Positions 45,101 through 48,100 of a stretch of DNA of 64,000 bases are shown here, piece after piece. The position numbers were made by a program. The stretch's first letter is position 1, and every line of letters starts with the position of its first letter. This DNA comes from Pedosphaera sp. (GTDB lineage Bacteria > Verrucomicrobiota > Verrucomicrobiia > Limisphaerales > SIBH01): assembly GCA_031414955.1 (NCBI GenBank), contig JANOQV010000065.1, forward strand, positions 9,958 through 73,957. Direction: 5' to 3'.

Positions 45101-48100
45101 CGTTTGCTTGGGTCAAACTATGAAGAGTCGCTCGTGCGTGTTCAATGGCTTTCTGGCCCTGGCCCTCCTGGCTTCCACGGCGGGTTGCTGCACGAGCGTG
45201 GAATGCAAGCGGAGCAAGGAGAAGAGCACCCTGCGCGTCCACCTCGAGTCAGATCGCGGCAGCAAAGACCGCGCCTCGGCCATCTCCGTTCTCCGCACCT
45301 CGCCGGTCAAAATAAACATCGAGCGCGATCCGGTCCTGCATGAGGGGCATGTCGTCGCGGCGCGCCTCGTCGAGGAGGACGGCGGTCTGTTCTCGGTCGA
45401 GATTCAGTTGGATCGTCGCGGATCCTGGGCGCTGGAACGCACCTCCGTCTCGTATCGGGGCCGGCACCTGGCCGTCTTCAGCGATTTCGGCGAGGAAGCC
45501 CGCTGGCTGGCGGCCCCAGTCATCCAGGCCAAGAACAGCAGCGGCCGCCTGACCTTTACCCCCGACGCGACCCACGAAGAGGCCGAACGGTTCGTCCGTG
45601 GCCTGAACAACTACGCCAAGGAACAGGAGAGCGCCGACAAGTGGCCCTTCGCCCCGGCCATGGAAAGATGAAGGCCGAAACTCCAAACTCCAAACCCCAA
45701 ACTCCAAACCAATCCCAAGCAGCAAACTCCCACCGGAACTTGGGCACGCCTGAATTCCCTTGGGTTTCTAGCCTTGGGATTTTGTTTGGGATTTGGAGTT
45801 TGGGATTTGGAATTTCCCCTGCACACGCCCAACCCTTCCACCTGCCCACGGCCAACCGCGCCCTCTTCGACAAAGGTGCCGAGGAGAAATTCTTTGTCGG
45901 CACCACGGGCAAGCCCTGGCCGAGTGGCACCTTCGGCTGCGTGCGCAGTGAAGGGAATCAGATGCATGAGGGGCTCGACATCCGCAGCTTGTCCCGCGAC
46001 CGGCGCGGCGAGCCGACCGATCCGGTGCTGGCTTCCTGCGACGGCACGGTCGCCTACCTCAACCCGCGCATCAGCGCCTCGAACTACGGCAAGTACGTCG
46101 TGCTGCGCCATACGATTGAAGGGATGGAGGTCTTCACGCTCTACGCGCATCTGAGCGGCTTCGCGCTCGGACTCAAGGCGGGCCAGACCGTGAAAGCGGG
46201 TGAAACCATTGCCACTCTGGGCCGGACCAGCAACACGCGCGAGCGCATCTCGCAGGAACGCGCCCATGTCCATTTCGAGATCAATCTCTTCGTCAACGAA
46301 CGCTTCCCCGTTTGGTACAAGAAGGAGCATCCCAAGGATCCCGACGAGCACGGCCCGTGGAACGGCATCAACCTGCTCGGCCTCGACCCGCGCCTCATCC
46401 TGCTCGATCAGCAGGCCCAAGGAGCAAAGTTCAGCCTCGTGAAGTTCATCCAGAGCCGGCCCGAGTTGTGCCGCGTGCTGGTGCGCGACACCAGCTTCCC
46501 CTACCTCAAACGCTACCCCATGCTCCTGCGTTCCAACCCTGTGGCGGAAAAGGAAGGCGTGGCCGGTTACGAACTCACACTCGACTGCAACGCCGTGCCC
46601 ATCGCGCTCACGCCGCGCGCGGCCAGCGAGATCAAATCGAAGCAGAAATACCAGGTGCTCTCGGTCAACGCCGCCGAGGAGGAGAAGAATTCCTGTCGCA
46701 AGCTCGTGGTCCGGCGAGGCCGGAGTTGGGAGTTGAGCAACACCGGAACTGTCTTCCTCAATCTGCTGACGCAGTGAGGTGGTCGCTCCCACGGGTGGCC
46801 CGCCGTCGCCCTCAAACGGGACCGCGTGGGGAACTCCACTCATTGAGCTCGCGCTCGTTCGCCGCCGCGCCGAGGCCGAGATGTTCCAGCGCCTCGCCCA
46901 TCAAATAAAGCGACCCAGTAATCACGACGTGGCTTTCATCGCCGGCCAGCGCCAGCGCCTCGGCGAGCGAGCCAGCCGGGCGAACCTCCAGTTCGGGCTG
47001 CGCCTCCTGAGCCGCCTGCACCAGTTGCCCAGGCCGCGCGCTGCGATTGCTGGCCACCGGGATGCAAATCATCCGCCGCGCGACCCCGGCGAATGTGCCG
47101 GCGGCTTCCGCCCAGTTTTTATCCTCCAGCATGCCGAGGATGACCGTGCAGGGCGCGCCGCCAAACTCCACCCGCAACGCCGCGGCCAGCGCCTTCGCCC
47201 CGGCCGGATTGTGCGCTCCATCGAGCACGATGGTCTGCACCCCGCGCCGGAGAACCTGGAACCGCGCCGGCCATTGCACCGCCACCAACCCATCGCGCGC
47301 GACCACTCGCGGCACCGGCAGGCTCTCCTCCAACAGCTCAACCACGCCCAAGGCCACCGCCGCGTTGAGCCGTTGATGCGCGCCGCGCAAACCCAGCCCT
47401 TCATGCACCACCGGCTCCGTCACCACCTGTAGCCGCGCACCCTGCCGCCGTGCCGTTTCGTGAATCTCCTCCAGCGCTCCGCCTTCCGCCGCCGTCACCA
47501 CCGGCACGCCCGGCTTGATGATGCCGGCCTTCTCCCGCGCAATCGCCTCCAGTGAATTTCCCAGCCAGGCCTCGTGATCGAACTGCACATTGGTGATCAC
47601 GCTCACCAGCGGCGTGACGATGTTCGTGGCATCGAGCCGTCCGCCCAGTCCGGTTTCCCAAATCACCAGATCACACTTCTGCTCCGCGAAATAGCGCGCC
47701 GCCAAGACCGTCACGACTTCGAAGAAAGTGGGCCGGTGCTCCTGCGCCAGGTCCGCCAGCCAGCCCCGCGCCTCCGCCACCAACCGGGCCGCGTCCGCCT
47801 CCGAGATCAATTCGCGGTCGATCTGGATGCGCTCGCGAAAGCTGACCAGATGCGGCGAGGTATAAAGCCCGACGCGCAGGCCGGTCGCGCGGTAGATCGA
47901 CTCCAGCATGGCGCAGGTCGAGCCTTTGCCATTCGTGCCCGCCACATGGATGAAGCGAAGCTGAGACTGCGGCTGCCCGGCCAGTTCCGCCAGACGCAGC
48001 GTGGGGGCGAGACCGAGGTTCGCGCCAAACATGGGGAGCGAAGACAAATACTCGATGGCTTCCTGATATGACATTCGGCGGCGGATGCTGCCAGCCCCTT

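Follow-up and report, generated by a model that had tools for sequence, protein, structure and literature searches.

An imperfect palindrome built of 7-base units lies at the head of an M23 peptidase gene in Pedosphaera sp. (genome G000), at positions 45678-45815 of the window, the 64,000-nucleotide stretch of DNA that was analysed. The reading frame of the peptidase runs through the palindrome, and the question raised by this locus is whether a piece of repetitive DNA has become the signal peptide by which the enzyme is exported. The first-pass annotation had proposed that it has; the palindrome on which that proposal was based is real, with the boundaries now set as above and the start codon at ATG 45668.

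Anatomy of the palindrome and the predicted leader

The features of the locus, in window coordinates, are these:

45087..45671, forward strand: upstream gene, 194 codons from TTG, with a weak SecDF_P1_head match below the cut-off
45668..45670, forward strand: ATG that starts the M23 precursor and overlaps the stop of the upstream gene
45669..45823, no strand assigned: whole predicted RNA hairpin, a long imperfect stem that spans the first 52 codons
45678..45730, forward strand: left arm of CCAAA(C/T)N heptads, coding for the polar Pro/Lys/Asn/Gln/Ser front of the leader (n-region)
45731..45772, forward strand: palindrome spacer with a small inner stem-loop, coding for the remainder of the n-region
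45773..45815, forward strand: right arm of TTTGG(G/A)N heptads, coding for the hydrophobic h-region, residues 36-49
45815..45829, forward strand: c-region, residues 50-54, ending in Ala-His-Ala, outside the repeat and in the same position as in classical orthologues
45829/45830, forward strand: predicted signal peptidase I cut, Ala54/Gln55, after Ala52-His-Ala54
45830..46777, forward strand: mature M23 peptidase, with Pfam PF01551 at residues 99-206 (45962-46285)

The frame opened by ATG 45668 (g01124, contig positions C65:55625-56734) encodes 369 amino acids. Its start overlaps the TGA of the upstream gene (45669-45671) as ATGA, which suggests translational coupling of the two genes, and in 26 of the 30 loci compared an orthologue of the upstream gene lies immediately 5' of that for the peptidase. 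The PF01551 match scores 63.8 bits against a cut-off of 28.7, the HxxxD (H100, D104) and HxH (H200, H202) zinc motifs are invariant in 46 sequences, and the solved structural relatives in the PDB are DipM and other M23 proteins. M23 enzymes cleave peptidoglycan and therefore require export, and the right-arm segment is the only hydrophobic stretch ahead of the mature part.

The leader combines an N-terminal in-frame start, an h-region that is uncharged and, by our own calculation, as hydrophobic as that of classical M23 leaders, and small residues at positions -1 and -3, as a Sec signal would. The h-region sits in a stretch of 24 residues with no Asp, Glu, Lys or Arg; the two other frames of the same right arm contain two and three acidic residues. 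The left arm had been described as Lys-rich, which does not fit this copy (two Lys, one Arg and two Glu in the n-region, net charge +1); the mean net charge of the n-region is +4.4 among repeat-coded M23 leaders of at least 40 residues. Sec signal peptides usually have about 18-30 residues, although long ones are known; the predicted leader has 54 residues here and 47-104 across nine genes. Repeat-coded leaders are about twice the customary length. No Tat or lipoprotein signal was recognized, there being neither RR nor Cys in residues 1-55 and no conserved Cys in alignment A1. The AlphaFold model has residues 1-50 unstructured (pLDDT about 40-47) ahead of a confident mature domain and is silent on the signal question. 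An ESM Atlas search with residues 1-62 gave no usable match, and a word-based protein search with the leader alone found only the leader itself.

At the RNA level, the palindrome has a predicted minimum free energy of -65.1 kcal/mol (z -5.0), with no equally stable sequence among 200 shuffles, and Rfam gave no match at E<=1 across window 45000-47000. G000 contains 128 copies of the heptad palindrome in which both arms are present, with a median length of 138 nt, and a further 138 arms that stand alone; being short and numerous, with terminal inverted repeats, the palindromes resemble MITEs. They differ from REPs of the GTAG/CGTC type, described in the accessible text of PMC3733652 as palindromes of 20-40 bp that carry a GTAG or CGTC tag, in that no such tag occurs at the ends of the 138-nt element. 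Arms built from identical or related units of 7 to 10 bases also flank four-helix-bundle genes (PF05635; inverted heptads at C217, C137 and C241, an 8-mer at C32) and GxxExxY genes (PF13366; arms at C19, C301 and C184, none at C117) in G000. Copies of the window type contain neither gene and thus look like gene-less relatives of such cassettes, from which they may descend; in the accessible part of the literature, a search for a link between these genes and short-repeat flanks found no paper. Arm types of 8 and 9 bases are also present in the leaders of congeners.

Because seven is not a multiple of three, all frames of an arm read alike: on both strands, every frame of the first arm is rich in Pro, Lys, Asn, Gln and Ser, and every frame of the second in Trp, Phe, Gly, Leu and Ile. 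All six frames are signal-like by construction, so a signal-like appearance alone proves nothing and tests for selection are required.

Leaders of orthologous and other fused genes

Orthologous M23 loci were compared after removal of duplicates (L032-L036) and incomplete loci (L043-L045). Ordinary leaders precede the same mature start at all 18 loci outside the genus and in congeners G001, G002, G003, G010 and G011, whereas heptad leaders are found in G000, G004-G009 and two metagenome loci; L038, the closest relative, carries another heptad, which keeps to the same register. The contrast first reported between the classical leaders of G002 and G003 (18 and 17 residues) and the heptad leaders of G007, G008 and G009 is thus borne out, although the identity of the mature parts, given as 73-81%, is a little lower for the five orthologues cited (67-77%). 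The start codon overlaps the upstream stop in G000, G004, G006, G007, G008, G009 and L041, and is GTG in G004, G007, G008 and G009; the leaders of G007 and G009, which had been thought to lack a start, begin at this GTG, which overlaps the upstream TGA. In G005, 155 nt separate the coupled GTG from the mature part, which is therefore out of frame (the dead frame has 158 codons), and the nearest in-frame starts are only TTG and GTG, 10-11 codons ahead of the mature part. Rescue of this gene by a -1 frameshift was considered and rejected, the A-run lying, as judged by eye, outside the slippery register of the GTG frame.

A single origin of the M23 heptad leader is rejected (AU p=0.0022): its carriers do not form one clade in a DNA tree of 19 rows, on which there are five changes. 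Among 120 database homologues, 108 could be classed by eye from the protein alone (12 were left unclassed), of which 34 have repeat-coded and 74 classical leaders, with 13 changes of leader type; the tree would accommodate gains and losses alike. The homologues show every stage: P0092 combines an element with the old h-region, as the unrelated C211 gene described below combines one with its old signal, P0033 has the left arm alone, and in P0023 and P0093 the leader is short but its h-region is coded by the repeat. Repeat-coded leaders are therefore likely to decay back to ordinary-looking signals. Given such decay and recurrent turnover, some of the leaders that look conventional in congeners may be derived rather than ancestral.

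Among the M23 leaders, small residues occupy positions -1 and -3 in all 34 that are repeat-coded, at the ancestral position, and in 73 of the 74 that are classical. The proposal that the predicted cleavage point stayed at the ancestral residue is supported by this retained Ala-x-Ala site. The proposed replacement of the leader applies to the n- and h-regions but not to the c-region, which appears to be inherited, and the comparison supports recurrent turnover by several unrelated repeat families rather than one event.

The other loci reported to have this layout (g00951, g04424, g04002, g03467 and g00959) also hold up as read-through fusions, each opened by an in-frame ATG at the left border of the element; at g04002 the fusion holds but not the extent of the element (C231:23804-23852), which has a left arm too, at C231:23722. 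Beyond the seven fusions known earlier there are three more, at C56:1464 (2,544 aa), C184:137769 and C211:722. Fused frames at C51 and C117 still bear the old signal, and three putative leaders made from other repeat families were identified in G000 (C56:11803, C67:42511 and C184:41413).

Eight fused genes (g03281, g00951, g04424, g00959, g03467, g04002, C184:137769 and C56:1464) were traced in 12 or 14 genomes of the genus or family, with paralogues left out of the orthologue counts. The leader of g03281 is classical in G002, G003, G004, G005 and G007, and heptad-coded in G000, G001, G009 and G008 (right arm only in the last), which confirms the genomes first listed and adds G001 to the heptad side and G004 and G005 to the classical side. 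Classical leaders are found on g00951 in G003, G012 and G013, on g04424 in G012 and G013, on g03467 in G002 and, less clearly, on g00959 in G011, while g04002 has a heptad leader in all eight orthologues. The slot before g04424 is filled by heptad, 8-mer, 9-mer and REP-like types in different genomes, and in G012 by a mini-frame that ends as ATGA on an intact classical signal; that before g03467 has held two heptads and two 8-mers. The clearest case of different repeat families in one slot is the C211 gene, present in five of ten genomes searched, which has four different heptad families at the same coupled start in G000, G001, G004 and G007, and classical signals of 23 residues in G002 and G006. 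LolA-like genes have heptad-coded leaders in G001, G006 and G013, and are not used as proof because the homologue in G000 is distant.

A profile of 24 leaders matched 3,958 protein clusters at E<=0.001 among 1.84 billion, and many of the best 150 of these are mini-frames of 45-70 residues. Among longer matches, 22 picked by length and position have the leader at the head of LolA-family, DUF1080 and DUF7133 domains; in one database protein (P0263) it is fused to an aminotransferase.

Mini-frames, fusions and selection on the leaders

With a codon model trained on G000, 83 copies of the element were paired with their downstream genes. A sense frame spans the element in 56 of the 83 (antisense control, 40 of 83). 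A gene on the same strand ends at the left edge in 50 cases; a spanning frame is present in 44 of these, 29 beginning on the upstream stop (NTGA). Persisting copies in operons would mostly be read through by ribosomes. Where the frame is unfused, it is followed by a downstream ATG in 42 of 43 cases, its stop falling between -20 and +8 nt from that ATG in 40 and overlapping it as ATGA in 24. At nuoD-nuoE, where ATGA flanks the element on both sides, as a target-site duplication might leave it, the copies of G000 and G010 are read as a mini-frame of 51 or 58 codons ending in ATGA, and eight relatives without the element have a single ATGA overlap; at trpC, in a comparison of three junctions only, there is no flanking ATGA and the junction is not of the coupled mini-frame form. 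The mini-frame of 51 codons at glgA persists in G002 despite decayed repeats.

The two fates differ in the kind of protein that follows. Under classes assigned by eye from N-termini and Pfam, the downstream protein is exported in 11 of 13 fused frames, and none of the 43 genes behind a mini-frame has a cleavable export signal (p=5e-10); a conservative count without two proteins that lack a classical orthologue gives 9 of 11 (p=1e-8), and fused genes compared with all unfused genes are exported in 12 of 14 versus 6 of 69 cases. No close orthologue of C184:137769 or g04002 has a classical leader, and only the pattern places these two among exported proteins. Two fused frames head cytoplasmic proteins (named by eye as DnaE-like, at C54, and Gfo/Idh/MocA-like, at C231:11715), and both proteins retain their own ATG. 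A home-made signal-peptide heuristic was discarded as a classifier because it also scored membrane proteins and one Rossmann fold.

Selection was assessed on 44 leaders of nine genes with a scored right arm, of which 34 have a scored left arm as well and 10 do not. An ATG or GTG stands at the left edge, open and in frame, in 33 of the 34 full-element leaders, which have 28 different lengths, as against 3 of 68 alternative frames; the figure is 25 of 26 without the eight G000 leaders that defined the gene set. Acidic residues in the right arm are depleted in the frame used (0.031 Asp/Glu per residue, versus 0.103 in the other frames of the 44 leaders), in each of the nine genes (sign test p=0.004), whereas 42 unfused mini-frames have 0.090 in frame and 0.090 in the other frames. 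The leader of g04002 is read in the frame that contains the most Asp/Glu across the genome, yet has only 0.007. By our own calculation on an insertion scale, the best 12-residue segment scores -0.62 in leaders; the corresponding values are -0.58 in 26 classical M23 leaders and +2.1 in mini-frames. Over the final 16-30 codons of the leader, eight close pairs have a pN/pS of 0.51 in the frame used (p=0.004), compared with 0.71 and 1.29 in the other frames and 0.18 for the mature parts. Pairing of the hairpin is retained to the same degree in leaders and mini-frames (0.83 and 0.82 of arm bases), with energy per base slightly weaker in the leaders (p=0.024). Since the genomes are kin, p-values over leaders overstate the significance; within G000 alone, eight fused and 42 mini-frame copies differ modestly (p about 0.01-0.05; Asp/Glu p=0.035, uncharged run p=0.053). 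A preferred right-arm frame was dropped as a leader signature, because it is also used by 46 of 69 open sense starts.

A probable route from repeat to export signal

Taken together, the conserved frame, the frame-specific loss of acidic codons, the retained cleavage site and the split between exported and non-exported proteins support the original reading of the leader as a Sec-type signal peptide, as far as sequence can. In genes for exported proteins the hairpin has very probably become the export signal itself, and has done so repeatedly. The route is probably as follows. The element, moved by some mobiliser, would insert where one gene meets the next, on a start codon or immediately after it, and in many cases this start overlaps the stop of the preceding gene; nuoD-nuoE and the C211 gene are observed examples. 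Ahead of a gene for a cytoplasmic or integral-membrane protein, the element would give a mini-frame of about 50 codons with its stop at or close to the following ATG; ahead of that for an exported protein, it would give an in-frame N-terminal extension. After fusion, the old h-region would be redundant and be lost, and acidic codons would be purged from the right arm, so that the element would supply the n- and h-regions of a long Sec-type signal, of 47-65 residues, cut at the inherited Ala-x-Ala. Such events would have been repeated with different repeat families, the leaders later shortening and decaying to ordinary-looking signals. What is seen appears to be replacement of an existing signal and not a gain of export function.

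Most leaders contain in-frame TTG or GTG codons inside the right arm, and shorter products are therefore possible. It is improbable that the left arm and spacer are untranslated and that such a codon starts a signal of 16-23 residues, whose h-region would still be repeat-coded: G000, G004, G006, G007, G008 and G009 do have candidate codons at a distance of 16-23 codons from the mature part, gene callers choose such starts (P0025 and P0093) and GGAG-like words occur within the arm, but the candidates are buried in a stem of -65 kcal/mol, their products would mostly lack a basic residue, and the in-frame open start at the left edge of nearly every leader, whatever its length, would go unexplained. 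The N-terminal part of 30-45 residues, and the uncharged Trp/Phe-rich runs of 20-27 residues that exceed a usual h-region, could instead belong to an uncleaved signal-anchor that holds the peptidase in the inner membrane and changes its localisation. We give this little credence, because the hydrophobicity score equals that of classical leaders and the small -1/-3 site is kept at its ancestral position in every repeat-coded M23 leader.

It is very improbable that the fused genes are damaged passengers, poorly expressed or unexported, in which tolerated or harmful insertions look like signals as a by-product of composition. The six signal-like frames, the frameshifted G005 gene, the C211 gene of G000, which is shortened by an IS-like sequence, and some 55 polar heptad tracts that lie in frame within proteins without evident function would all suit such a view; however, the mature parts are under purifying selection with invariant catalytic residues, the Asp/Glu depletion is frame-specific and missing from unfused copies, and fusion is nearly confined to exported proteins. 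The reading of the hairpin as a recruited Sec-type signal is the most likely. A bolder extension of it, which we regard as doubtful, is that the element is a selfish cassette that owes its survival to a polar-then-hydrophobic, mostly stop-free design evolved for that end: behind any start codon it would be harmless, either forming a coupling mini-gene or being removed by the signal peptidase of the host, like an intein without self-splicing; the element would then be a portable export tag in any frame and on either strand. If so, it could make cytoplasmic proteins exported and be a systematic source of signal-peptide gains in bacteria.

The closest precedent is the RU-2/YPAL repeat of Yersinia, predicted to form part of the signal of YPO1552, whose homologues have unrelated signals (Delihas 2007, PMC2759123; review PMC2229807). 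As far as the accessible text of these sources goes, that case is a prediction for chiefly one locus (with a second, weaker one) and one TA-flanked MITE, as opposed to at least ten genes in one genome here, where the leaders arose repeatedly and independently, tandem-repeat families replace one another, selection has left a signature and mini-frames contrast with fusions. Rickettsia palindromic elements and the intragenic REPs of Opitutus terrae are palindromes of about 150 bp or less that are translated in frame within conserved genes (PMC2229807, PMC10969869, PMC3733652); in the accessible text they are described as neutral loop or terminal inserts rather than tandem heptads, no take-over of a targeting function was found, and 'signal peptide' has no match in PMC10969869. 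From the same group of papers, Di Nocera et al. suggested that N-terminal REPs are mostly misannotations, and the frame and charge tests argue against this for heptad leaders. The TAACTGA heptamers of Beggiatoaceae, Cyanobacteria and Bacteroidetes (MacGregor 2015, PMC4679880) are likewise 7-nt tandem repeats concentrated beside start codons, have a coding potential that depends on the strand and are translated now and then, but are described in the accessible text, where 'signal peptide' has no match, as direct repeats without a hairpin and with stops in the forward frame. PARCELs are, by the accessible account, a different palindromic coding repeat (PMC2996958). Among Enterobacterales, whole signal peptides are gained and lost between orthologues by insertion or deletion, and transposable elements were sought as their source with ISEScan and none found, according to the accessible text of Hoenigschmid et al. 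2018 (PMC5952966); here a repeat can be seen as the source, though of signal replacement rather than of a gain of export. In the literature searched, which took in few subscription papers and articles without their supplements, no description was found of heptad palindromes that act as signal peptides or as coupling mini-frames. New here are the repeated occurrence, the exchange of one repeat family for another, the signature of selection and the rule that separates mini-frames from fusions.

Annotation is affected too: gene starts at such loci are often placed within the repeat, and the 3,958 clusters matched by the element peptide include many mini-frames of about 50 residues. A single gene family offers a natural series of ordinary leader, mini-frame, element with old signal, element only, shortened leader and decayed leader. 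In this group of uncultured Verrucomicrobia, repetitive DNA would have become a working part of proteins by a repeatable route, and these elements would be a visible and repeatable source of new signal peptides, of the kind sought without success among transposable elements in the accessible text of PMC5952966.

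Mini-frames at gene junctions

Unfused heptad palindromes form mini-frames of about 50 codons at 43 gene junctions of the genome under study (G000), the first codon lying on the upstream stop and the last on the next ATG (ATGA). Two examples are:

C301:30054-30193, unfused palindrome at the nuoD-nuoE junction
C183:6909-7059, unfused palindrome at the glgA junction

The glgA mini-frame is still present in the related genome G002 despite decay of its repeats. Through these mini-frames, translational coupling is apparently restored by way of the hairpin.

Elements in frame within and between protein genes

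Protein-coding loci of G000 that contain or adjoin heptad arms include:

C259:20299-20378, full palindrome in frame within the leucyl-tRNA synthetase gene (L057)
C171:24417-24559, element between lgt and miaA (L058)
C241:17868-18527, four-helix-bundle gene

The insert in leucyl-tRNA synthetase, common to G000 and G008, lies in the anticodon-binding region; at this position the enzymes of G001 and G003 contain repeat-like insertions of lesser length. The G000 enzyme also possesses a PBECR3 nuclease-like domain (residues 743-853). Through the element at L058, lgt and miaA constitute a single open frame of 621 codons, in which miaA keeps its own ATG. The N-terminus of the four-helix-bundle protein is a translated heptad left arm, and a full heptad palindrome follows its gene.

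Single heptad tracts, belonging to several repeat families, are found in frame at about 55 sites inside G000 proteins; in most the polar strand is read, and reading of the hydrophobic strand is rare. A database protein of 800 amino acids (P0121), a membrane protein with a TMEM260-like match, contains the element-coded peptide five times, in frame, between or within membrane segments.

Altered leaders and a second repeat

One G000 gene with both the element and the old signal (L055) is interrupted:

C211:114-722, gene with element and old signal

It has a stop at codon 202, whereas in its orthologues the frame stays open for 550-620 codons; IS-like sequence follows as far as the contig end. The heptad-coded M23 peptidase leader of G005 (L002) has an intact, uncharged right arm, but its coupled GTG is out of frame with the leader, which is preceded by a run of seven A. 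The sister leader L038 differs from the G000 right arm at 45773-45815 of the window in heptad unit but not in register, which gives the impression of an in-place conversion of the unit.

A second, REP-like dispersed repeat with many short matches across the G000 genome lies in frame in a 2,544-residue protein of C56 (L047; query residues ~265-325). Insertions of this repeat type also occur in a number of leaders from G004, G005, G007, and G009.

A subfamily of near-identical copies

At least 20 heptad palindromes of G000 are near-identical, with conserved non-palindromic flanks, among them:

C19:15457, subfamily copy
C84:2348, subfamily copy
C100:14610, subfamily copy
C193:19926, subfamily copy
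C242:32131, subfamily copy

This subfamily looks recently mobile.
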